Notes: generated by a model from the letters alone, not told the origin. 17,104 nt of DNA from Promethearchaeota archaeon (GCA_048939465.1 JBHLPL010000036.1:1-17104); one strand, 5' to 3'; shown: positions 2,698 to 13,460, counted from the stretch's first letter. A program made the numbers and translations.

Positions 2698-4278
2698 TTA
2701 TACTTCGACCGAAGGAGAAGGCAGTCTCTTATTCTCGTTATGCGATAGATTCAGAACTTTAACTATCAAATCTGATCTAACCTTTGACAATCCCTCATAA
2801 CGACCTTCATAGGCTGCTTTCTCGGCTCCAAGATCATAACAAGTTATCCCTTCTGTCGTTATGAGCAACCCCGGAACGCCAATCCTATCGAAGTCTTCAG
2901 CATGCTTCTCATAGAATTGTGTACAGCAACTCCCTACCCAAGCCAATTCTCCCATTTTCTTGAGTTTATTCAGCGTCTTCTCCAAATGCTCATAGCTTAC
3001 TATAGTCACAGGTCTGAAGCCGAGTTTCTCTGCATTCTCATAGATGGGTGTGAACTCACACAGACCACATTTAGTGCACTTCGGGTCATATCTTAAGTCA
3101 CATTCCAGGGGTTTGGCGCAATATGGCAGCAGCAAATACCTCGCAGTTTCCAGCACATATTCTGCAGGGGCCAAGACTTCTATAAGTTGATCTGCTTCAT
3201 CGGCTGATAATTCCAAGTCAAGTAACCGAACTTTTGACGCTGCTTCCATTATCGCCCTCGTTATATCTTTAACCGCCACTCCTGGTATATCCGCGTTAAG
3301 TGTATCAAATGCATTTTTCACGGCCTTATGGACATCTCGCTTTTCGATGGGCAATTGTTTGACTCTGCTTTCGATTTCATAAACAAGATTTTGTGGAAAA
3401 GCAAAGAAATCTCCAGTCAGATAAGTGGCATTAATTACGTTCTCATAGACGTTGACAGCAGCTCTGACAAGCCCTCCCGGCGCCTTTACGCTTGCGTGGA
3501 AAAAACCCCTCCTGGGAACTTTAACAAGATGTATCCACTCCTTTGAAGAAAAATGAGGTAGATTCGCTTCCAGGAGTTGAGTTTCATACGGTCTAAGACC
3601 TTCTGCTTTGAGAGAGATGCTGAAATAATCGCTGAATTCATCTGCAAAAGCATCCTTAATGATCTCAATATCCGGCAGATATCCTTTCTCTGATTTTACA
3701 GTGGTGATTCGCTCCTTCAGGGACCGAATCTCTTTATCCTGCAGTTTCTTGATGGGTATCCTCAAACATCTAAGCATCTCGGGGACGTCAAGATCCGTTA
3801 ATAGTGTTCCTTGAAACAAAAATGCGCCACCGAGTCTAGTTCCGCCGGTTCCGGAGATCTTACGACCACCAATCTCAATGTCATTTTTTGATCTGAACCT
3901 TGCCTTTAGGCCAAGTCTCTTAAGAGCTCTTACAGCGCCCTCACATATTGAAGCTGTGAGTTTTTCCATGCTCCCTGGAAATCTTTGATCCCATTTTGAG
4001 ATGATTTCCCACCCAAGATGAATCGGGGCGAAGTATATTGCACCTCCTCCTGTTAAACGGCGATTAATATCAACCCCGTTTTGCACACAGTAGTCTACTC
4101 GAACTTCTTGATCGATATCCTGGTGATAGCCTACTAGCACGCAGGGTTTTGAAAAACGTAGAAACCTAATAGTATTAGGTGCTCGTTCTTCAGAAACTGA
4201 AGTCAGGAGTACTTGGTCTAAAGCCATATTCTCAGCAGCACTTCTCAAACCCGTATCAATTAGTCTCCACTCTTCCAT
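2698..4278 (-). CDS. lplA: Lipoate-protein ligase (catalytic + C-terminal domains) fused to a Cys-rich DUF116-like domain
   Basis: LplA motifs: WRLIDTG..AAENMALD, RRLTGGGAIY, KNDI, RKISG (catalytic Lys), QGTLL. These are followed by a ligase C-terminal domain (KAPGGLVR...ITGDFF-like) and an extra ~140-aa tail with 8 Cys (PYCAKPLEC, CTKCGLC, GSCC, TCYD). Confidence 0.9.
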   Translation of the reverse strand: MEEWRLIDTGLRSAAENMALDQVLLTSVSEERAPNTIRFLRFSKPCVLVGYHQDIDQEVRVDYCVQNGVDINRRLTGGGAIYFAPIHLGWEIISKWDQRFPGSMEKLTASICEGAVRALKRLGLKARFRSKNDIEIGGRKISGTGGTRLGGAFLFQGTLLTDLDVPEMLRCLRIPIKKLQDKEIRSLKERITTVKSEKGYLPDIEIIKDAFADEFSDYFSISLKAEGLRPYETQLLEANLPHFSSKEWIHLVKVPRRGFFHASVKAPGGLVRAAVNVYENVINATYLTGDFFAFPQNLVYEIESRVKQLPIEKRDVHKAVKNAFDTLNADIPGVAVKDITRAIMEAASKVRLLDLELSADEADQLIEVLAPAEYVLETARYLLLPYCAKPLECDLRYDPKCTKCGLCEFTPIYENAEKLGFRPVTIVSYEHLEKTLNKLKKMGELAWVGSCCTQFYEKHAEDFDRIGVPGLLITTEGITCYDLGAEKAAYEGRYEGLSKVRSDLIVKVLNLSHNENKRLPSPSVEV

Positions 4279-4299
4279 TCCAAATCCCCGAACTGCTAA

Positions 4300-4324
4300 T
4301 GTTAATAAATCATTGCTTTAAAAC
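4300..4324. promoter_or_regulatory. Divergent archaeal promoter region between lplA and the flavoprotein
   Basis: 66-bp AT-rich intergenic region with TTTAAAAC (4317-4324, +) and TTTATTAA (about 4310-4303, -), each about 25-30 bp from a start codon. Confidence 0.45.
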
Positions 4325-4344
4325 AATTTCCTTGGTGCAATCAC

Positions 4345-5412
4345 TTGTATGATGTTGTCGTGGTAGGGTGTGGGCCTGCGGGGACGGTGGCCCTCCGACA
4401 ATGCGCAAGACTCAGACTGAAATCATTAGGGATTGAACAGTTCAGGATGCCTCGGCACAAGCCTTGTGCTGGGGTCATCTATCCCCGTGTCTTGGAGGAT
4501 TTCGAAGTCCCGAGGGAGGCAATAGCTGCCCCGCTCAGGGGCGTTAAGATGGTTTCTCCTAGCGGGAGCACTGCATTCATAAATTTCGCAGACGGTGGTG
4601 CAGTAATCCATCGAAATACATTCGATTACTTGCTAGCCACCAAAGCGAGAGAAGATGGGTCAGAAATTACCGATGGGATCAAGGTAGTTGGTGTAAATCT
4701 GCACGATGATCATTGCGAGCTTATTCTGAGGAACAGGGCTTCTGTTAAGTGTCGATACGTTATTGCTGCCGACGGAGTATATTCAACTGTGTGTCGTAAA
4801 CTTGGCAAACCTTGGGCCAAAGAAGACCTCGCACTGACTCTTCAGCTAACCTTAGCTGTCTCAAGAAAGGACAAGAAGAGCATCAACAATTATTTTGAGA
4901 CCTACTATGATAGTCGAAGAACCCCAGGGGGCTGGATGTGGGTCGTAGAAAGGGAAAAGGACGTCTTGGCGGGTCTTGGCCACGAGTTCAAGTATCGAAA
5001 GAAGGTGGGAAACCAGAATCAGGAATTGATCACCTTTCTCAGCCAGAGATTCAAAAGATTTGAGGTGCTGAAAAAGGAAACATATATGCTGCCATTCAAA
5101 GGTCCTCGTCTGAAGGAGGATCTGACACTGATGGATAGAATCTTGTTGACCGGAGATGCCGCCGGTTTTGTGAGAAGTGACACAGGAGAAGGTATTTATT
5201 ATGCTATGCATTCCGGATTAGCGGCGGCTGAGTCAATAGCGGATGTTATGGGTTCAGATGAGTCTTTGAAGGATATATATTTCAAGAAGCTGTGTGACCG
5301 CGGCCTGCACGTTCTCTACGTCACAACTGACCTCAAACATGCGCTTCTCGATAATGAATCCATGGAAAAATACATTAAAAGAATTAGGAAACTGACGGAA
5401 TTGTTCAAATAG
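4345..5412 (+). CDS. Geranylgeranyl-reductase-family FAD-dependent oxidoreductase (LipT-like candidate)
   Basis: Rossmann motif YDVVVVGCGPAG, KPCAG, IAADG, and GDAAGFV..TGEGIYYAMHSG. TTG start. Confidence 0.85.
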   Translation: MYDVVVVGCGPAGTVALRQCARLRLKSLGIEQFRMPRHKPCAGVIYPRVLEDFEVPREAIAAPLRGVKMVSPSGSTAFINFADGGAVIHRNTFDYLLATKAREDGSEITDGIKVVGVNLHDDHCELILRNRASVKCRYVIAADGVYSTVCRKLGKPWAKEDLALTLQLTLAVSRKDKKSINNYFETYYDSRRTPGGWMWVVEREKDVLAGLGHEFKYRKKVGNQNQELITFLSQRFKRFEVLKKETYMLPFKGPRLKEDLTLMDRILLTGDAAGFVRSDTGEGIYYAMHSGLAAAESIADVMGSDESLKDIYFKKLCDRGLHVLYVTTDLKHALLDNESMEKYIKRIRKLTELFK

Positions 5413-5452
5413 CAGATCCATTGACAGGATATCATGGCGAGCTTCAAAATTT

Positions 5453-5470
5453 TTAGAACATATGTTCTAA
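5453..5470. repeat. Perfect 18-bp palindrome TTAGAACATATGTTCTAA
   Basis: Read directly from the sequence. It lies between two convergent genes; near-identical copy at 6317-6334. Confidence 0.9.
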
Positions 5471-5553
5471 GTTGAACTATGGCTAACGCTCCCCGTGAGT
5501 TTTTCGAACTCCTATTTCCTATTGCTGAACCAAGGTTATGGAGACGAGAGCTT

Positions 5554-6174
5554 CTAATGATCCGCTGTTAATTCTTTCTCTCCAGTTGACTCTATAGGTT
5601 TCGCCACGAGGAGGCAAATCGCTCCCATTATTCCTACGATTGCTACAAGCAACAGCAGATAGCCGACAGCAAGATAAGAAAGAAACACAGGCAAGAATAA
5701 CCTAGCCGCCGATATGAATAATGCGAAGCCAGCAATGATGTAGATTAATCCTGTAAGACCCCAAGATCCTTTATTTTGTAGATATTCGCGATATTTTAGA
5801 AAAAAGGCACCGGTCAAGATTGCCGTTCCTCCAAAAGCGAGATGATCCATGGACAGCGCAATAAGCGATATCAACAGTATAGGGAATATAGGCAGAATGA
5901 AGTAAGCGATAAGGCCAACCAAAGAAGTAAGTATTCCAACTATCGAGGCAGTCAAGCCAACGCGTGAGCCTCCGAATCTGGCAATCAAGTCATTGTTGGC
6001 TGTTGTGAATACTGTTCCGAAGATTAGCAGAAACACGTAGGAGGCAAAGCTAAGCATGACATCTTCCAAGAATCCAATGCTTGCGGCGATCAAGTAGGAA
6101 AGTGACAGTAAAAGAGCCGAAATGAAGAACAAGATTTGACTGATAGCACCTCGACGAAATCCCCCTTCTGCCAT
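5554..6174 (-). CDS. Hypothetical polytopic membrane protein (~206 aa)
   Basis: About 6-7 hydrophobic segments. GGAGG precedes ATG 6174 (MAEGGFRR...), which is preferred over the track's start at 6222. Confidence 0.75.
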   Translation of the reverse strand: MAEGGFRRGAISQILFFISALLLSLSYLIAASIGFLEDVMLSFASYVFLLIFGTVFTTANNDLIARFGGSRVGLTASIVGILTSLVGLIAYFILPIFPILLISLIALSMDHLAFGGTAILTGAFFLKYREYLQNKGSWGLTGLIYIIAGFALFISAARLFLPVFLSYLAVGYLLLLVAIVGIMGAICLLVAKPIESTGEKELTADH

Positions 6175-6314
6175 TTTTCGGTTCTCCTCCTTACGCATAC
6201 GAAGGGTATGCTTTTGATGCAAGACTGCTCATAGTTATCAGGCCAACTTATACTTAAGACTTCTGAGGCAATTTTATGATCATAACGACAATAGGTTGGG
6301 TTTGTTGGCGAGAT

Positions 6315-6336
6315 CCTTAGAACATAAGTTCTAAGG
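6315..6336. repeat. 22-bp near-perfect palindrome CCTTAGAACATAAGTTCTAAGG
   Basis: Read directly. The core differs from 5453-5470 by one base. Confidence 0.9.
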
Positions 6337-6549
6337 GAACGCAGAGCCTGCCAGGCGATCCAGGATCTCTAAGAATCGAATCTCTAGAATCTTGTGCTCG
6401 ATTTCGAAGAACAATCAGCGCTGTTTTTCGATTTATAGTGTCCGAGAAGAGGAGTTTCCAGCATAAAGGAATGGCGTTCAATCATCTTTCAGACGCGCTC
6501 ACTGTTAGTCTTTTAGAGATAGGGCGGCTTCCAGATTCTTGTCGCCCTA

Positions 6550-6942
6550 TTAAAACGGCAAAAGATACCCAATAACCGTTACAATGATCCCTATGACTAT
6601 AGAGTAGGCCGATATTTGAAGAGCCCTCTTCCTGTCTTTTTGACGGGAATCCTCGCTTTCCACCTTGATGGTTCTTCCCACCTCTTCACCAACATTCTGA
6701 ACTGACAAAAGGGCAAAGTATACGCAAAAGCTCTTCCGCGCTTGTAGGAAGCCTAGCGCAGAAAATGTTGACGGGGCGATTATAATAAGACGCCAAAGCG
6801 GATTAAGATTTAGCAATACAAGTGAGGAGTATACAGCTACGGTCAAGACAAGACCAAACCATCCTAATATATTCCTTCTTCTGATTTCAGGGGCTCCGAT
6901 ATTGCAGACACCCGGATTGTATTCTCTTTCTTCACTATTCAT
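6550..6942 (-). CDS. Small hypothetical membrane protein (130 aa, ~3 TM)
   Basis: GAGGTGA upstream of the ATG. It has a YNPGVCNIG..EIRRR N-terminus and an FLQARKSFCV motif resembling a widespread uncharacterised family. Confidence 0.75.
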   Translation of the reverse strand: MNSEEREYNPGVCNIGAPEIRRRNILGWFGLVLTVAVYSSLVLLNLNPLWRLIIIAPSTFSALGFLQARKSFCVYFALLSVQNVGEEVGRTIKVESEDSRQKDRKRALQISAYSIVIGIIVTVIGYLLPF

Positions 6943-7083
6943 CTTTTCACCTCACTGGTGCCTATTCGCAGTACCTTAATACTCTCTATCAATGACGGAA
7001 TTCATTAAAAAGCATTTTACTTATGACTTATGCAGCCCCAGTGAGCGGTAAGTCAGATTCTTCAGAGAGAATAAAACGTGTTG

Positions 7084-7099
7084 ACCGCAAATTTAAAAA
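7084..7099 (+). promoter_or_regulatory. BRE + TATA box
   Basis: ACCGCAAA-TTTAAAAA, an archaeal-type BRE/TATA arrangement about 45 bp upstream of the ATG at 7144. Confidence 0.55.
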
Positions 7100-7143
7100 G
7101 CCCGGTATCCTAACGGAAATCAAAACGTCAGGAATGTAAGACA

Positions 7144-7284
7144 ATGGATAAGGATAAGAAGATCAAAATGAATTGCAATACAGACTGTCCTTATTTACGT
7201 CGATTATGTGTTTCTCTCCCGACAGCTGCCGAGACATGCTGCGGAGCAGAAGACGAGGCTCCCACATTCAAGGAAGACGACTAA
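7144..7284 (+). CDS. Small Cys-rich protein (46 aa)
   Basis: MDKDKKIKMNCNTDCPYLRRLCVSLPTAAETCCGAEDEAPTFKEDD*, with five Cys and its own BRE/TATA. It is below the track's cut-off. Confidence 0.55.
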   Translation: MDKDKKIKMNCNTDCPYLRRLCVSLPTAAETCCGAEDEAPTFKEDD

Positions 7285-7294
7285 TGTTCTAAGG
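7284..7294. repeat. Half site (ATGTTCTAAGG) of the palindromic motif
   Basis: 11-bp exact match to the reverse complement of the left arm of the 6315-6336 palindrome. It starts at the stop codon of the 46-aa ORF. Confidence 0.6.
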
Positions 7295-7338
7295 GATCGC
7301 GGGGTCCCCAGTATCTTATGGTCGTGAAATGCGTTCAG

Positions 7339-7419
7339 TTAGGTCTCTTCCAGAGCTATACCCAAATGAAGCAGAAGAATACCGATTATCGCAGCAACGA
7401 CGACATATGATCCAATCAT
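7339..7419 (-). CDS. 26-aa hydrophobic peptide coupled to the NuoI-B-D fusion (membrane anchor or NuoH remnant)
   Basis: The ATG overlaps the fusion's TGA (ATGA, 7419-7416). Translation: MIGSYVVVAAIIGILLLHLGIALEET*. Confidence 0.45.
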   Translation of the reverse strand: MIGSYVVVAAIIGILLLHLGIALEET

Positions 7420-9404
7420 CGGTCATGATCTGCCGGACAGTTATCCAAACTCCAGTAAATTACTGGAATGTCTGCCACGTATTTACCCCCCAGAACCTTC
7501 GGCATGGCAACAAGTATGCTGTCAAAAGTCGGGCCTCTGATTTTTACCCTATAGGGAGTTTTGTCTCCATTGCTTACTATGTGAAAGCATAGCTCCCCCC
7601 TTGCACTCTCAACACAATGAATTGCTTCCCCCTTAGGAAGGCGGGAAAACGGTGTGAACTTTTTGCCATTCCCCATTGTGCTTTCGGCTATTTCACCCTT
7701 TGGCATCTTTTCAAGAGCATTGTCAATTATCCTGAGACTTTCTTCCATTTCTTTTCGCCTACACAATGCCCTAGAATATGCGTCTCCCTTATCCAAACTT
7801 GCAACATCAAAATCCAGTTCGGTGAAGGCTTCGTAGGGCATGGTTTTCCTTATATCAAATTCAAAGGCCGAGGCCCTCGCATTTGGACCAGTTACATCTA
7901 GGTCTATGGCCATATCCCTGGGCAACTTCCCTATTTCCTTTGTCCTAGTTTTGAATGTTGGGTTATTAAAGCACAAATCATCGAAAAACTTGAGTTGTTT
8001 CTCCATATACTTCTTTACTTCCCCAAACTTCTCTTCGAAATCTGGGGGCATATCGCTCCTCACACCGCCCGGTATATTATAAATATGATATATTCTACTC
8101 TTAGTTAGTTTTTCCAATAGTAAGAGAATTTTCTCCCTTTCACCCCAAGTGATTTTTGTTACGGTGTCAAAACCTGCTGCCGAAGCTATCAGACCCAAGT
8201 TCAGTAAGTGGCTTTGTATTCTGCTCAGTTCACCGTGAACCACCCTAAGATACTTCGCTCTCCGTGGTACTTCAATCCCAGCCAGCTTGTCTAAAGCGCC
8301 TATGTAGGCTAATTCGTAACTTGCACCATCGAGCACGCATACACGTTGGACGAGCATAATATTTTGCCACCAAGTCCGGTACTCCATAAGTTTTTCAAAC
8401 CCTCTGTGGAGATAGCCCGGATTCGGTCTTACGCTCTTGATGGTTTCCCCGTCAAGCTTAAAATATACATTGAAGTTGCCTGAAGCTGGATGTTGAGATC
8501 CAAAGGGTATTGAGTACTCTCCTGGCTCTCTAGTTTCCCCTTGATATGGCGGAAGATCAAGAAAACCTTTTTCCTTATTTACCTTCTCTTCTTTGCCCAT
8601 ATATCCACCTTGAATAGCGTGGATAGCCATTAAGATTGCTAATCCTATCGGTTCTGGTCTGGGCGGACAGCCGGCTATCATTATGTCTACAGGTATGTAT
8701 CTTTCAAGGTCCTTTATGGTGTTATAGCTATCCCAGTAGGTTCCTCCATTGATCGGACAGCAACCCAGCGTCATTACGTATTTGGGACGGGGCATCTGTT
8801 GATAGATACGGATTATCCTTCTAAGGGTTTTTACTGTTACATAGCCGCCTATAAGCAACACATCGGAGTGTCTAGGTGAACCTTTGGCTAGCAGTCCAAA
8901 CCTTTCCATATCAAAACCACTGCTTACCCAAGGGACGGCTTCTATGAAGCAACAGCCAGTGAAGTAATTGTTGATCCATAAGCTACGTGAGATAGCCCAG
9001 TTCTTGATTCCCTTAATCTTAGGAGGTACTGGATGTTCAAGCTTTGGAGGCTCTGAAAGCTTTTCTGGCGGATAAACTAGCTCGTCCTTATTGTGAACGA
9101 CTAGAAACGGAAAATTCGAGAATGTGAGTGCCCCGCGGGAGCATATGTCAACACATAACCCGCAAAAGCAGCATTTACTGTAATCTATTTGGGGGTATAG
9201 TTTCTTCTCTCCGTTCTTTTTCCTTTCAACCATCTCGATGGCCAAGTTTGGACAAATCCTCTCGCAGAGCTTGCAGCCTATACACTCTTCCATGTCAAGA
9301 ATATGTCTCCCCCTGAAGCCTTCCGAAAGAGGCGTCTCAGGTGGGAAATTGAAGGTTATGGGCTTGTCCTTCAGCATTTTAAATTCTGCTTTGAAGAGGC
9401 TCAT
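7416..9404 (-). CDS. Triple fusion NuoI/MbxN + NuoB/MbxJ + NuoD/MbxL (complex I / sulfane reductase-like catalytic headpiece)
   Basis: N-terminal region: two ferredoxin-type motifs, CIGCKLCERICP and CCFCGLCVDIC. Middle: NuoB motifs TGCCFIE, FDMERFG, GCCPINGG, AGCPPRPE. C-terminal region: NuoD motifs GSQHP, GYLHRGFEKL, ELSRIQSHL, ESARGE, ending DNCPADHDR*. One uninterrupted 662-aa frame with GGTGA upstream. Confidence 0.92.
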   Translation of the reverse strand: MSLFKAEFKMLKDKPITFNFPPETPLSEGFRGRHILDMEECIGCKLCERICPNLAIEMVERKKNGEKKLYPQIDYSKCCFCGLCVDICSRGALTFSNFPFLVVHNKDELVYPPEKLSEPPKLEHPVPPKIKGIKNWAISRSLWINNYFTGCCFIEAVPWVSSGFDMERFGLLAKGSPRHSDVLLIGGYVTVKTLRRIIRIYQQMPRPKYVMTLGCCPINGGTYWDSYNTIKDLERYIPVDIMIAGCPPRPEPIGLAILMAIHAIQGGYMGKEEKVNKEKGFLDLPPYQGETREPGEYSIPFGSQHPASGNFNVYFKLDGETIKSVRPNPGYLHRGFEKLMEYRTWWQNIMLVQRVCVLDGASYELAYIGALDKLAGIEVPRRAKYLRVVHGELSRIQSHLLNLGLIASAAGFDTVTKITWGEREKILLLLEKLTKSRIYHIYNIPGGVRSDMPPDFEEKFGEVKKYMEKQLKFFDDLCFNNPTFKTRTKEIGKLPRDMAIDLDVTGPNARASAFEFDIRKTMPYEAFTELDFDVASLDKGDAYSRALCRRKEMEESLRIIDNALEKMPKGEIAESTMGNGKKFTPFSRLPKGEAIHCVESARGELCFHIVSNGDKTPYRVKIRGPTFDSILVAMPKVLGGKYVADIPVIYWSLDNCPADHDR

Positions 9405-9416
9405 AACTCATTTCAC

Positions 9417-9890
9417 CTACGGAGCACTTTCATAAGTCTCCTTCACGTATTTCTTCCAATCAAACTCCTTTCTAAAAGGTGGTGGACCGTCCCACTTCTC
9501 AAGAAACAGTGGTTTTAACATGGCATTTCCATCAAAAGTAATTCCAAACAGTTCCCAGATTTCCCGTTCATGCATGGCGCTGTTTTCCCACAGCGAAGAT
9601 AAGCTTCGAATCCTGGTTTCATCTCTTGGTATTCTTGCAGCAACTTTGGCGTACAAATTCTTCGTAGGATTGTGAACTATATAATATATCTCAAATTCCT
9701 TTTCCTCCAGCCAGTCAACGGCTGAAACTGTTAGAAGCCTTCTAAAGCCCTTGTTCTTTAAAAATTCTGCAACTCCGCTATAATTGACCTTAGATACCCT
9801 GATAAATAGGAATCTGCCCTTGATCTCGCATTCAGCATTAAAATGCGTTTCTAACTCTTTAGAGATTTCATGAGAAATGAAATCTTTCGT
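9417..9890 (-). CDS. nuoC: NuoC/MbxK-like subunit (start codon uncertain)
   Basis: The frame is open from 9893 to the TAG at 9417: PTKDFISHEISKELETHF...GFRRLLTVSAVDWLEEKEFEIYYIVH...SLWENSAMHEREIWELFGITFDGN..LKPLFL. These are classic NuoC motifs. The track shows only the last 79 aa because no in-frame ATG/GTG/TTG occurs earlier; ACG at 9890 follows a G6A tract. Confidence 0.85.
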   Translation of the reverse strand, partial: TKDFISHEISKELETHFNAECEIKGRFLFIRVSKVNYSGVAEFLKNKGFRRLLTVSAVDWLEEKEFEIYYIVHNPTKNLYAKVAARIPRDETRIRSLSSLWENSAMHEREIWELFGITFDGNAMLKPLFLEKWDGPPPFRKEFDWKKYVKETYESAP

Positions 9891-9933
9891 GGGCTATCCC
9901 CCCTGGCTAAGCTTTACCACAGAGATAGTTCTG

Positions 9934-9950
9934 AGTATTTAAGTTTTGCT
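9934..9950 (-). promoter_or_regulatory. BRE + TATA box of the nuoC / nuoI-B-D operon
   Basis: AGCAAAACTTAAATACT on the minus strand. The 12-mer AACTTAAATACT recurs exactly at 13480-13491. Confidence 0.55.
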
Positions 9951-10084
9951 AGTAGAGATTTTTCTGCCCTTATGTTAATGTAAGAAGCTATCGGCTGATC
10001 TCTCCCAGTAGGAGTTAGTACAAGCTTTGAGACAATAAAGTTAAAAATGAAAAGGCATGAGTATCTTCAGAAGGAGGGAAAAGA

Positions 10085-11200
10085 TTGGAGTCTCCTGACT
10101 ATGTGAGGCTTAGTAATGCAGCAGATATTACTTTGGGCTATAGTCAAGGGAGATTTTGGAAGAATGCCAAGTTATTCTGCATAAATGTTCTCCTTTATTT
10201 TGAGGATGGATGCAAAGCCAACTGTCTTTATTGCGGTCAGGGAAGAGACACCTCAAGCTCTGCAATATGCAAGTCACTGATCAGGGTTGAATGGCCTCTG
10301 AGGCCGTTGGATGAGAGCATAGAGAAGTTCAGAGAGAGATATGTGGGTTCTGGATCATTTCACAGACCGTACAGATTCTGCGTAAGCACAATAACGCATG
10401 CAAAAGCTGTTAAAGCCGAGATCGAGGTCGTTGAGAGAATTCAACGCGAGCTAAGAGTTCCGGTATCGGCTCTGATTTCGCCAACCATTTTCACAAGAGA
10501 AGCGATGGAACAACTAAGAGAAGCGGGAGCAGAACGAATAGGGATTGCAATCGACTGTGCCAACAAAGATTCATTCTTTGCACTGAGGGGAAAAGGAGCC
10601 CACGGGCCCCACAGATATGATAGATATCTTGAAGGAGTCAGAGAAGCGGTTGACATTTTTGGTCCGGGAAAGCCAGGCATTCATCTAATCGTAGGTCTAG
10701 GCGAGACGGAGGAAGAAGCTATTAATTTGATACGGAGTGTAGATGACATGGGCGCGGAGACTCACCTATTCTCATTCTATCCAGAGCCTGAAAGCCTGCT
10801 TTCGGAATGGAAAAGACCAGACATCGGTCAGTACAGACGCATTCAACTAGCAAGATACATCATAAATAACAGAATGGCAGATCCCGACTGCATGGAGTTC
10901 AACGAGCAGGGCCAGATAGTGGGATTCGGTCTAAGCGAGAGATTCCTGCGGAGAATCTGTGAGAATGGCGAGCCGTTCATGACCTCAGGATGCCCGGGAT
11001 GTAATCGTCCGTTCGCCAACGAAAGACCTGGTGAGGTCATCAGAAATTTCCCGTACCATTTATCTATAAAGGAATCAAAAACCGCATTCAAACAAGCACG
11101 GATATACGAAGAGCCAAAGAATACGTTCAAGCATTTAGAGAAATATGTGCAGGGAAAGACCAGAGAAAAAGCGAAGGAAATATCAGTTCTCAGTGCCTAG
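10085..11200 (+). CDS. lipS2: Radical SAM enzyme, LipS2-type archaeal lipoyl synthase subunit
   Basis: CKANCLYC (CX3CX2C), a biotin-synthase-like core, and C-terminal TSGCPGCNRP, matching the TxGCPxC(N/D)RP motif described for LipS2 homologs of Thermococcus kodakarensis. TTG start after GGAGG. Confidence 0.8.
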   Translation: MESPDYVRLSNAADITLGYSQGRFWKNAKLFCINVLLYFEDGCKANCLYCGQGRDTSSSAICKSLIRVEWPLRPLDESIEKFRERYVGSGSFHRPYRFCVSTITHAKAVKAEIEVVERIQRELRVPVSALISPTIFTREAMEQLREAGAERIGIAIDCANKDSFFALRGKGAHGPHRYDRYLEGVREAVDIFGPGKPGIHLIVGLGETEEEAINLIRSVDDMGAETHLFSFYPEPESLLSEWKRPDIGQYRRIQLARYIINNRMADPDCMEFNEQGQIVGFGLSERFLRRICENGEPFMTSGCPGCNRPFANERPGEVIRNFPYHLSIKESKTAFKQARIYEEPKNTFKHLEKYVQGKTREKAKEISVLSA

Positions 11201-11298
11201 AATTCTTGTGTTCACCGCTTCATGATGATTTTCGGGTATCTACGTATCTCAGAGTACATCCTTGTTTGGGTTTAATTGCTCTGTGGAGGGGAATATTG

Positions 11299-11625
11299 AT
11301 GAAATCATGTCCAAGATGTGGAAAAGAAGTGCAGAAGGATGCAAGCTACTGCGTTCATTGTGGAGCTTACCTTGAGAGCCTTTGGGAGGAAGAATATTCA
11401 GTCCCTTCAGATGGACTAATTGAGAGAATTAAGAAGCTTATTCATGAGGGAAACGTCAGAAGGATTGTGGTTAAGAACGAAGAAGGAAAAATCCTGATCG
11501 AAATACCGGTATCATTAGGAATAATAGGGGCAATTCTGGCCCCGTGGTTGGCAGCTCTCGGGGCAATTGCTGCAATAGCTTCAAAATGCACAATAGTTGT
11601 AGAAAGAAGGGGAAAAGAAGGCTAG
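11299..11625 (+). CDS. Zinc-ribbon + DUF4342-domain protein
   Basis: CPRCG...YCVHCG ribbon, then IKKLIHEGNVRRIVVK...EIPVSLG...LAPWLAALG...CTIVVER. GGAGGGG precedes ATG 11299, so the track's start at 11206 is probably too long. Confidence 0.8.
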   Translation: MKSCPRCGKEVQKDASYCVHCGAYLESLWEEEYSVPSDGLIERIKKLIHEGNVRRIVVKNEEGKILIEIPVSLGIIGAILAPWLAALGAIAAIASKCTIVVERRGKEG

Positions 11626-11642
11626 AGAAGCGCGGCAAGGGA

Positions 11643-12503
11643 CTACTCAAACTTGCTTTCAAAGTCTTTTGCAAATTTTGAATCCGAGTAAGCTTTTAAG
11701 CGTTCAGTGGTGGTTGAATAAATATCGATTACTTCTTCTTCGACCATGAGTGGATTCTCCGCTATCCGCGAGTCAATTTCACTCAGTCTCTTTATCAGGA
11801 TTCTTCTTTCCTCTGGGGGCATAACGCTGGGATCTGTCATGGCAGCTGCCCTAGTGTCAATCTTCGCATCCAGAAGGTATTTGAATGCCACAAATGGAAG
11901 TTCGTAGAATTTTCCAATAGCTCCCGTTCTCTCTGTAAATCCCTCAGGAGTAGCTGCTTTGAAGGATACTCTGACATACAGCTTGTCTGCAAAAGGCTTA
12001 AGCTGGTTAACATAATCCTTATCAGCACCAAAGAGAACACCATTCGTTTCCAAAATGAAAAGAGGATACTCTGAATCCATCACTCGTTCCAGAACGGAAA
12101 GCAAATGCTCTTTCCCAATCGTGGGCTCGCACCCTGACAATCTAAGCTTGTTGATCTTAAGATGCTTGAACCGCTCCCACCCGCGAGCAGTTATTCCTTC
12201 TTTGGCGGCCTTGAAAAGCCCTTCAGCCACTCCTTGTGGGGAATAGAATTCGCCAAATTTCTCAGGAAAATCTCTAGACCAGTTGCCCCAGCAGTAGATG
12301 CAACGCAGACAACAGCCTGCTGCGTAGCCAGTTGCGATTCCTCTGTAGACTGGGGCAGAATAAATGCCAGTGTACTTTCTTTCTAGTCCTTCCGGACCAG
12401 GTCTAGTCACAATCTTCTCGGTTTCTTTGGCCAATTCAAGTGGATTAAAAGGCTCCGAATCTGAGCTAAAAAGACGAGGATATTCTTTCATTCTTCTAGT
12501 CAA
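11643..12503 (-). CDS. Radical SAM protein of unknown function (archaeal predicted Fe-S oxidoreductase type)
   Basis: YRGIATGYAAGCCLRCIYCW (CX3CX2C), RLSGCEPT, ILETNG, VRVSFKA. No SPASM motif. The TTG overlaps the upstream stop; ATG 12491 is an alternative start. Confidence 0.85.
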   Translation of the reverse strand: MTRRMKEYPRLFSSDSEPFNPLELAKETEKIVTRPGPEGLERKYTGIYSAPVYRGIATGYAAGCCLRCIYCWGNWSRDFPEKFGEFYSPQGVAEGLFKAAKEGITARGWERFKHLKINKLRLSGCEPTIGKEHLLSVLERVMDSEYPLFILETNGVLFGADKDYVNQLKPFADKLYVRVSFKAATPEGFTERTGAIGKFYELPFVAFKYLLDAKIDTRAAAMTDPSVMPPEERRILIKRLSEIDSRIAENPLMVEEEVIDIYSTTTERLKAYSDSKFAKDFESKFE

Positions 12504-13282
12504 CTCACGTTTATGATTTTGATTTCGTTTAGATCAGCCACACCTAATCCTCTTGACTGAGCAAGCCTCAAATGATCTATCGATAGGGGATCATAGCCGA
12601 GCATGTTTGCTCCAACAGCGTCCGCAGCAACCAGATCCTTGGAAATTATGACTACTCCCACTTCCTTTGGCCTCGCTCGGAGTTCTCCTCCTGTTCCACC
12701 AACAATTCCGTCAATTATGGCTAAATCTGGTTTTATGTAGAAGTTTAGGTCTATAATGCTTTCACTGAGTCTTCGATGGAACCGCCCTTTTTTGAATACA
12801 GCACTGGTCTTATCTCCCAGAGTCGCGCCTAGCATATTCTTCAGGGAAAGGGTTACAGTAGTCAAGGAATGTGTTTTGAGAATTGGAACTGAGACTATGT
12901 AGGCATTTTCAAGAGTGATAGGAAACTCGAATTCCTTTACAAAAGAGGCTGACGGGTCTCTTCTGATTTCATACTTATCTTCATTAAGGTCTACGAGTTG
13001 TATGCCATACTCCTTCGCAATCTCAGAATAGCCTAACGCTTGATAAGCCTCCGAGGTTGTGCCCCATCCGGTGCCCTCAGCGATTATAACCTCAAACTCC
13101 TTATGAAAATACTTCACAATTGCTTCAATGGTCTGGCATGGTGTTGTTGTGGGGGGAGGTGAGCTGTTGATTAGGTTTGGTTTGAGGATGATTTTCTCTG
13201 GTTGGGGCTTCTCAAAATGCTTTAAGGCATTTGGTATCATTTTCTCAGGATTTTCTCCCTCTGCAATTATGACCCTAGACAA
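12500..13282 (-). CDS. DUF362-domain protein
   Basis: ILKPNL, IIAEG, VPILKTH, TLSLKNMLG, LAIIDG and DLVAADAV motifs typical of DUF362. Confidence 0.85.
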   Translation of the reverse strand: MSRVIIAEGENPEKMIPNALKHFEKPQPEKIILKPNLINSSPPPTTTPCQTIEAIVKYFHKEFEVIIAEGTGWGTTSEAYQALGYSEIAKEYGIQLVDLNEDKYEIRRDPSASFVKEFEFPITLENAYIVSVPILKTHSLTTVTLSLKNMLGATLGDKTSAVFKKGRFHRRLSESIIDLNFYIKPDLAIIDGIVGGTGGELRARPKEVGVVIISKDLVAADAVGANMLGYDPLSIDHLRLAQSRGLGVADLNEIKIINVS

Positions 13283-13283
13283 G

Positions 13284-13460
13284 AAAAAAACCCCAGCTAT
13301 CCTCTCATTGATTGAGTCATGATGTGAACTACTCCATCATTAGGATGGAGCTTCCTGTTTCATCCATCCCCCAGCGGGACACGTCTCTCAGGCTCCACGG
13401 ACAGTTCCTGCCCTGAAACCTTGTTTGCGAATTGGCGAGTGTTACGTCAGCTCAATTCCA
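13284..13460 (-). ncRNA. Candidate structured leader / small RNA
   Basis: Lies between a TATA box (13480-13491) and a T7 run (13290-13284). It contains several stems and no credible ORF; no RNA family recognised. Confidence 0.25.

Follow-up and report, generated by a model that had tools for sequence, protein, structure and literature searches.

A probable second lipoate-assembly system with a DUF116-fused ligase, and a separate NuoC-NuoIBD cassette between its genes, in a Hodarchaeales genome

Results

We analysed a window of 17,104 nucleotides from a Promethearchaeota archaeon (GCA_048939465.1, JBHLPL010000036.1:1-17104), which is contig C71 of a 1.96-Mb metagenome-assembled genome (MAG) of a Hodarchaeales Asgard archaeon with a completeness of 91%; a relative of the same genus carries the label Candidatus Hodarchaeota. 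The window encodes an Lpl(AB)-type ligase fused to a DUF116 domain, a LipT-like flavoprotein of the GGR family and LipS2b, a divergent radical SAM protein of the LipS2 family, and these genes bracket a pair of complex-I-like genes, nuoC and nuoIBD (Table 1). Our results suggest that the lipoate genes of the window are probably three out of the four that make up a second, paralogous module for lipoate assembly (hereafter system B), which would chiefly serve the carrier GcvH2, and that a separate complex-I-like cassette landed between them. An initial annotation of this DNA had tentatively joined the lipoate and Nuo genes into one redox system. Profile searches and open reading frame (ORF) calls recovered every gene that it had named, at the same coordinates, as well as the divergence of the radical SAM gene from the nuoC operon; the joining of the two gene sets is not supported, for the reasons given below.

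Table 1. Features of the window, with positions counted from its first nucleotide (aa, amino acids; FAD, flavin adenine dinucleotide)
Feature	Position	Strand	Evidence and remarks
Lpl(AB)-DUF116 ligase, 526 aa	2698-4278	-	LplA-B_cat 3e-44, Lip_prot_lig_C, DUF116 (Pfam, NCBIfam)
LipT-like short GGR-family FAD flavoprotein, 355 aa	4345-5412	+	TIGR02032, 194.9 bits against a cut-off of 158.8
Multi-pass membrane protein, 222 aa, no family match	5554-6222	-	Syntenic in G001; outside the module elsewhere
Membrane ORF, 130 aa, downstream of nuoIBD	6550-6942	-	ilvC-like gene there in G001 instead; also in the Logan contig
NuoI-NuoB-NuoD fusion (nuoIBD), 662 aa	7416-9404	-	NuoD equivalog NF004739, 390 bits against a cut-off of 360
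nuoC (Complex1_30kDa), 158-aa stop-to-stop frame, first cassette gene	9417-9893	-	Alignment full length
LipS2b, divergent LipS2-family radical SAM protein	10085-11200	+	NF053743, 223.9 bits; divergent from nuoC
Extent of the nuoC-nuoIBD cassette (indel against two congeneric genomes)	7281-10026		blastn synteny

The ligase joins a catalytic domain of the LplA type to an accessory domain of the LplB type and to DUF116, which has eight cysteines and covers about residues 352-526; both ligase parts are in one chain, as in Lpl(AB) enzymes (PF21948 3e-44, PF10437, NF053749 LplB 9.6e-13). Across 82 aligned fusions the catalytic lysine K140 and the cysteines C387, C393, C401, C404, C407, C451, C452 and C480 are invariant. 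An AlphaFold model of the ligase has a predicted local distance difference test score (pLDDT) of 91.5, and the DUF116 domain is modelled as a three-layer alpha/beta sandwich (pLDDT 90). The orthologue of the congeneric genome G001 is 81% identical, those of Thermoproteota 61-64% and those of other Asgard archaea 42-48%.

LipS2b has LipS2 (NF053743) as its best family, at a score under the curated equivalog cut-off of 270 bits; it is 33% identical to the canonical LipS2 that the same genome encodes on contig C135 (365 bits) and falls in a separate clade. Its CX3CX2C motif (C43, C47, C50) and the cysteines C99, C303 and C306 recur in canonical LipS2 and, among 71 LipS2b proteins, in no fewer than 99%; they correspond to the ligands C39/43/46, C85, C276 and C279 of T. 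kodakarensis LipS2 (PMC9585515). The genome's LipS1 is encoded on a short contig outside the window (C128:2192-3001; NF053742, 234.8 bits against a cut-off of 230). It keeps the CX3CX2C and C...CC ligands (cysteines 87/91/94, 294 and 341/342) and is of the b-type (LipS1b), being 43-48% identical to module-linked LipS1 proteins. In a quick tree, whose sequences included no experimentally named LipT, the flavoprotein grouped with 39 operon-linked LipT-like proteins (SH-aLRT 95), away from the Asgard GGR paralogues of about 400 amino acids. The assignments made in the initial annotation therefore hold for all three genes: the radical SAM protein is of the LipS2 type with all six cluster cysteines, the GGR-like flavoprotein sides with the LipT-like group in the quick tree, and domain profiles together with the catalytic lysine identify the ligase as a lipoate ligase of the Lpl(AB) type.

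Genes of these kinds recur together well beyond this genome. A module of LipT-like, Lpl(AB)-DUF116, LipS1 and LipS2b genes was found at 89 loci in archaea and bacteria, where the LipT-like gene lies within 7 kb in 70, lipS2b in 69 and lipS1b in 62, though many contigs end early. Among 40 Asgard relatives searched, the ligase, the GGR-like protein of about 350 amino acids and the LipS2b type are co-located in eight other genomes of six families. All four genes are contiguous in the order given in G010, G011, G020 and G021 and are found at a single locus in G028, G032 and G034; in G024 three of them stand on a short contig; LipS2b adjoins the flavoprotein in three further Asgard genomes, in two of which the ligase lies about 30 kb off. 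The LipS1 between ligase and LipS2b in the Asgard loci scores 202-248 bits, and the canonical LipS1 of the same genomes (257-289 bits) stands with the canonical lipS2-lplA-lplB set. When one genome per species was scanned, more than 590 fusion-type matches appeared, the best 80 of which come from archaea (Thor-, Hod- and Jordarchaeia, Bathyarchaeia, Thermoplasmata, Methanomethylicia and Nitrososphaeria) and bacteria (Chloroflexota, Thermodesulfobacteriota, Bacillota and Nitrospirota). We conclude that the four-gene module is conserved, that its genes encode the enzymes named above and that these retain their cluster ligands. The recurrence anticipated by the initial annotation is thus found for the lipoate genes, at 89 loci, and not for the Nuo cassette beside them.

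This genome also carries a canonical set on C135 (system A), in which LipS2, LplA-large and LplB form one operon, which brings its total to two each of ligases, LipS2 proteins and possible acceptors, with a single LipS1. Among the Asgard relatives searched, LipS2-LplA-LplB of the canonical type occurs in genus g1, where no LipS1 of that type was found, and family f19 (G031, G040) has LipS1 and no LipS2 match of either type. These patterns imply that synthase pairs may be mixed or incomplete.

The two possible acceptors are both GcvH proteins: a profile search of the genome found two GCV_H genes and no Biotin_lipoyl domain, and hence no E2 subunit. GcvH1 adjoins GcvT and a pyridine-nucleotide disulfide oxidoreductase resembling dihydrolipoamide dehydrogenase, with GcvP encoded on C150. 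The gene for GcvH2 stands as an orphan, flanked by those for arginyl-tRNA synthetase and V-ATPase. In a tree of the GcvH family, GcvH2 and its Asgard orthologues cluster with the carriers that module loci of Bathyarchaeia, Nitrososphaeria, Nitrospirota and Desulfobacterota encode (support 99/98), apart from GcvH1. The 89 module loci include a GcvH-like carrier in 21 cases, an HdrD/HdrB-like CCG protein in 19, an HdrC-like protein in 7 and an FAD-linked oxidase in 8. GcvH2 of this genome (G000) has no cysteine and an isoelectric point (pI) of 5.5 against 4.4 for GcvH1 (orthologues, pI 4.8-9.3). The initial annotation had found neither LipS1 nor a GcvH or LbpA acceptor in the window; the genes for LipS1 and the two GcvH proteins lie outside the window in this genome, and we rejected GcvH2 as an LbpA because it lacks the LbpA cysteine pair (criterion from bioRxiv 10.64898/2026.10.01.755906).

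The neighbourhoods of GcvH2, surveyed at 49 Asgard loci, are rich in redox genes. An HdrD-like/FAD-oxidase pair stands beside it in 13 of 14 loci of family f6, HdrC/HdrB-like genes in all three loci of f15, and a divergent "nuoABCDHI"-like operon in f7, f8 and f19. Plain Lpl(AB) lies beside GcvH2 in f7 (G075), f8, f17, f19 and f22, and f16 has none of HdrD/HdrC/HdrB, FAD-oxidase, nuo-like operon or Lpl(AB). Both [NiFe] motifs are present in the large subunit of the f8 operon (G012) and the C-terminal one in that of f7 (G011, an N-terminally short ORF), and these two operons look like group-4 hydrogenase operons. In the genome studied here the distance from GcvH2 to an FAD oxidase/HdrD-like pair is 9.5 kb. 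Such neighbours, with the GcvH tree, lead us to regard GcvH2 as the likely target that system B chiefly serves, and as a putative protein-bound dithiol/disulfide carrier for Hdr-like CCG proteins.

Other redox genes were seen on contigs of this genome. On contig C109 (L109 1-12392) two group-4 [NiFe] hydrogenase-like operons stand in tandem, each encoding the NiFe motifs. One of the two also encodes a Fer4_11 protein, an antiporter-like subunit and a CCG protein of the HdrB-like kind, and resembles the Ehd/Ehe type. A block of the same type lies about 7 kb from GcvH2 in G003. Contig C56 (L146 2653-9922) encodes in order HdrC-like, HdrB-like, polyferredoxin, HdrC-like, HdrB-like, HdrA-like and HdrA/MvhD fusion proteins; no carrier gene was recognised beside this row, whose flanking ORFs are unannotated.

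DUF116 was found in this genome in the window only, by profile search. Out of 1.84 billion, a profile of its subtype matched only 254 representative clusters, the majority being ligase fusions with a length of 500-570 amino acids, and natural triple fusions of Lpl(AB), DUF116 and GGR/LipT also exist (P0158, and an 893-amino-acid ORF in L098 from a Sumerlaeota MAG). In families lacking the module, the ligases adjacent to GcvH2 have no DUF116. The invariant cysteines, the occurrence of the subtype mostly in ligase fusions, the triple fusions with LipT and the DUF116-less ligases beside GcvH2 link the domain with the LipT/LipS step and not with recognition of the carrier. DUF116 most likely binds a metal or Fe-S centre; we prefer to see in it an electron relay, with cluster or sulfur supply as the alternative role. 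Foldseek returned nothing from the PDB at E <= 0.001, a wide search with VIA-align gave a best Z of 6.5 with only generic Rossmann-, flavodoxin- and HAD-like folds, and the AFDB clusters returned only other DUF116 domains or ligase fusions. A literature search on "DUF116" gave no relevant paper.

The second subject of the window is the nuoC-nuoIBD cassette. Read from the sequence, the I part of NuoIBD has two 4Fe-4S motifs and the B part N2-type cysteines (NuoB NF005012, 163.6 bits against a cut-off of 116). A motif search of the D part found no NiFe ligands (no RxCxxC, no DxCxxCxx[HR]), and its best profiles are NuoD and FpoD. The "MBS-like" label (MBS, membrane-bound sulfane reductase) of the initial annotation has no backing in these profile searches, in which no MBS-specific model or tree was used, and no membrane or Mrp-type subunit gene, as expected beside an MBS headpiece, is adjacent. 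The nuoC product is 45-58% identical over its full length to NuoC of other cassettes. No in-frame ATG, GTG or TTG lies upstream of codon 80 and the sole ATG close by (9869-9871) is off the frame by one base, in a sequence that is identical in an independent Logan contig; the start is possibly non-canonical (ATT/ATC) or involves recoding.

Both other species of the genus, G001 and G002, have the surrounding synteny without the cassette. Blocks aligned by blastn to G001 cover window positions 2705-6336, 7174-7280 and 10027-13300, the alignment to G002 jumps from 10027 to 7277, and the synteny with G001 spans from the phosphoesterase gene to the aminotransferase gene without 7281-10026. The absence of the cassette in its congeners is thus plain, and the direction of the insertion or deletion (indel) is what we infer. 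Searches of the 40 relatives gave no I-B-D fusion in 38, and the single genome that has one, G031, lacks LipS2b; the nuoIBD of that genome (L023, C205 646-2658) is broken by an in-frame TAA into 447 and 215 amino acids. No Nuo homologue is present at any of the 88 other module loci. Elsewhere there are at least 70 full-length I-B-D fusion clusters. The best matches, 75% identical, are ENA protein P0001 and P0002, labelled Ca. Hecatellaceae (a Bathyarchaeia-type lineage); named Asgard homologues are 57-64% identical, and one also comes from Anaerolineae. At six other cassette loci nuoC and nuoIBD always stand together amid varied unrelated genes, with no lipoate gene and no called complex-I membrane-subunit gene adjacent, and in none of the seven contexts do genes for NuoH, A, J, K, L, M, N or Mrp lie next to the cassette. 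Its base composition does not differ from that of its flanks.

Given the absence of the cassette in the congeners and at the 88 module loci, and the six cassettes without lipoate genes, the neighbourhood on which the initial annotation had built its lipoate/complex-I link is not conserved, an outcome that the annotation itself had counted as a refutation. We conclude that the position of the cassette between the lipoate genes is incidental. The nuoC-nuoIBD pair stands as an independent two-gene cassette for a complex-I Q-module-like Fe-S protein; it was probably acquired horizontally, and we read its distribution as that of a cassette that moves laterally. The ligase and flavoprotein of the genus are closest to those of MAGs labelled Thermoprotei and Methanomethylicia (L027 and L028 against 2698-5412; ligase 61-64%). 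That these closest relatives lie outside the Asgard archaea suggests that the module, like the cassette, may have moved by lateral transfer.

The gene order itself is secure. A Logan per-run contig (SRR34261216) matches window positions 10459-5563 at 99.7% identity, gapless and across both cassette junctions, and keeps the order lipS2b, nuoC, nuoIBD, 130-aa ORF, membrane protein; since this separate contig agrees, the arrangement is no assembly or binning artefact. The ligase and flavoprotein genes are divergently oriented, as are lipS2b and nuoC, with a gap of 191 bp between the latter two. Searches for tRNAs and Rfam families found none in the window, and the cassette is therefore not at a tRNA.

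Some smaller features were noted around the junctions. A 15-nt direct repeat, GTTCTAAGGGA(A/T)CGC, at 6328-6342 and 7286-7300 has its only two copies in the genome here, exactly at the synteny breakpoints bounding a 0.96-kb segment with the 130-aa ORF; the first copy belongs to a palindrome common to G001. A cysteine-rich ORF of 46 amino acids (7144-7284, plus strand) lies in a 107-134-bp stretch that is about 74% identical at the nucleotide level in both congeners, and the conserved 107-bp piece (7174-7280) folds no better than shuffles (z = 0.83). Downstream of lipS2b, at 11206-13282, genes for a Zn-ribbon-DUF4342 protein, a 286-aa radical SAM protein and a DUF362 protein are present in all three species of the genus, and a DUF362 gene also stands two ORFs downstream of the LipT-like gene at a Bathyarchaeota locus (L062). 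The 286-aa radical SAM gene (11643-12503) was considered as LipS1 and rejected, as it gave no LipS1 match in the profile search.

Discussion

Taken together our results point to system B as a second lipoate-assembly route, probably directed chiefly to GcvH2. The Lpl(AB) part of the ligase would attach free octanoate (or lipoate) to a GcvH-type carrier, LipS2b would insert sulfur at C8 and LipS1b from contig C128 at C6, and the LipT-like flavoprotein would supply electrons, probably from NAD(P)H. With the carrier docked, the DUF116 centre would pass these electrons on to the radical SAM enzymes or, less likely, service their sacrificial cluster.

Several observations weigh against this reading. 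LipS2b scores below the LipS2 cut-off, and the fold searches with DUF116 gave no match that assigns it a function. In this genome the module is scattered, with lipS1b on C128, the flavoprotein divergent from the ligase and lipS2b 4.7 kb off, so that its layout does not support co-regulation here, whereas in relatives the genes form one cluster or operon. The sole LipS1 found in the genus is b-type, with no canonical LipS1, and the two systems may therefore share parts and not be dedicated. LipS2b is the only LipS2 in G011 and G021, and system B can thus be a housekeeping synthase. GcvH2 orthologues also occur beside plain Lpl(AB) in families without system B, and the pairing is therefore not exclusive. 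The MAG, finally, is only 91% complete.

Some of these points favour a simpler explanation, in which system B is the general lipoyl synthase and ligase for the glycine cleavage protein GcvH, with the C135 genes left as a partial or redundant remnant and no pathway dedicated to a second carrier. The single b-type LipS1 of this genome and the lineages with LipS2b alone (G011, G021) keep this explanation alive; it also agrees with the 68 of 89 module loci that have no carrier gene within 7 kb, and with the lack of a detected 2-oxoacid dehydrogenase E2, by which the demand for lipoate would be small. We nevertheless consider it rather unlikely, as G003-G006, G034 and probably G024 keep two full sets, with LipS1, LipS2 and ligase of each type, and parallel ligases are reported to discriminate between GcvH and LbpA-type carriers (bioRxiv 10.64898/2026.10.01.755906). 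The GcvH-like carriers at module loci are, moreover, in many cases members of the GcvH2 clade and often accompanied by Hdr-like genes. A new function for the paralogues, with LipS2b, the LipT-like protein and DUF116 thiolating or otherwise modifying a substrate other than an octanoyl-lysine carrier, would account for the low score and the 33% identity of LipS2b and for a DUF116 domain of no known function. It seems to us improbable in the extreme: every member has an intact Lpl(AB) with its catalytic lysine fused to DUF116, every LipS2 and LipS1 ligand is retained and GcvH-like carriers are the only recurrent small-protein neighbours.

The initial annotation had a bolder proposal, that the lipoate genes and nuoC-nuoIBD are one system in which a lipoylated carrier passes sulfur or electrons to a complex-I- or MBS-like headpiece. 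The genes do bracket the cassette physically, in a second assembly as well, lipS2b and nuoC are a closely spaced divergent pair, and in other Asgard archaea the gene for GcvH2, at times accompanied by those for Lpl(AB) and HdrC/HdrB-like proteins, is the divergent neighbour of complex-I-like group-4 hydrogenase operons. This is still very unlikely for the locus at hand. The cassette is missing from the same site in both congeners and from all other module loci, its six other loci carry no lipoate genes, and the region upstream of lipS2b is conserved with G001 irrespective of the cassette; it also has neither NiFe ligands nor nearby membrane or Mrp subunits, unlike the operons adjacent to GcvH2. 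The general idea of a lipoylated carrier working with complex-I-like machinery finds separate support in other Asgard families, where GcvH2 stands beside group-4 hydrogenase/HdrB operons without this cassette.

Returning to system B as a probable route to GcvH2, we can tentatively go further, to a possibility that we rate well below that reading itself. The DUF116-type module might mature a distinct GcvH2 whose lipoyl dithiol/disulfide is the protein-bound "heterodisulfide" that has been missing for the Hdr-like CCG proteins of anaerobes other than methanogens, and DUF116, as a new Fe-S relay, might make LipS1/LipS2 self-sufficient with LipT. Among Asgard archaea, Bathyarchaeia, Nitrososphaeria, Desulfobacterota and Chloroflexota, the candidate partners would be HdrB/HdrC-like proteins, HdrD-like proteins that pair with an FAD oxidase, and membrane-bound group-4 hydrogenases that bear HdrB. 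That a soluble NuoC-NuoIBD also uses such a carrier is a weaker addition to this idea.

Hodarchaeales, close relatives of eukaryotes, and many anaerobes would thus have two parallel lipoylation systems, one of them with a ligase that bears an uncharacterised eight-cysteine domain. DUF116 is a concrete candidate for the supplier of electrons or Fe-S clusters to LipS1/LipS2, and an orphan GcvH2 near Hdr-like and hydrogenase genes makes the question of a disulfide for Hdr-like enzymes outside methanogens directly testable. NuoC-NuoIBD emerges as a widespread stand-alone cassette; a lipoate-Nuo redox system, had it been borne out, would have ranked as a new type of energy module, but the evidence goes against it.

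Compared with known systems, the cassette resembles the Q-module of complex I (NuoB, C, D and I) in that NuoIBD passes the NuoD equivalog cut-off, carries the N2-type and two 4Fe-4S motifs and has nuoC upstream. It differs from NuoCD/NuoBCD fusions in its order I-B-D and in the lack of membrane or Mrp subunit genes in all seven contexts. No membrane anchor or antiporter subunit of complex I, MBS or membrane-bound hydrogenase (MBH) was found in the window or at the six other cassette loci, and the nickel ligands of group-4 [NiFe] hydrogenases (RxCGxC, DPCxxCxxH/R), absent from the D part, are present in the C109 operons and in G012. The cassette is not of the Ehe kind. In the HdrB-linked membrane-bound hydrogenase clusters (Ehe) of Culexarchaeia, GcvH was suggested to carry a disulfide for Hdr (Kohtz 2022, PMC9723716), and GcvH2 orthologues of several Asgard families similarly stand beside HdrB/HdrC-like CCG proteins and group-4 [NiFe] hydrogenase/antiporter operons. 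GcvH2 of this genome differs in not being adjacent to such an operon, the HdrB-containing hydrogenase operon being on another contig. The lead from GcvH2 to Hdr and hydrogenases is therefore partly anticipated in print.

The canonical LplA/LplB and LipS1/LipS2 route of the T. kodakarensis type is also represented in this genome, on C135, and LipS2b shares all of its ligands; system B departs from it in the low identity and separate clade of LipS2b and in a ligase that is fused, not split, and bears DUF116. The closest likeness is to the sLpl(AB)-LipS1/LipS2-LipT pathway (Cao 2018, PMC6067878; Jin 2020; Neti 2022, PMC9585515; Tanabe 2023, PMC10332631). The two share all four enzyme families: a one-chain Lpl(AB) ligase, a pair of BioB-like radical SAM proteins that keep the published cluster ligands, and an FAD protein of the GGR-like kind. 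The operon logic is the same in relatives of this genome, and system B exists side by side with another route of lipoylation, much as the pathway is described to do where LbpA is present. In contrast to that pathway, system B is found in an Asgard anaerobe with no sHdr-LbpA cluster beside its genes, its candidate carrier lacks the LbpA cysteine pair and its genes are dispersed in this genome. The eight-cysteine DUF116 at the C-terminus of the ligase, of which the pathway literature searched makes no mention, may set it apart as well. From its sequences, system B appears to be of the published sLpl(AB)-LipS1/LipS2-LipT type with one unpublished feature, the fusion of the ligase to DUF116.

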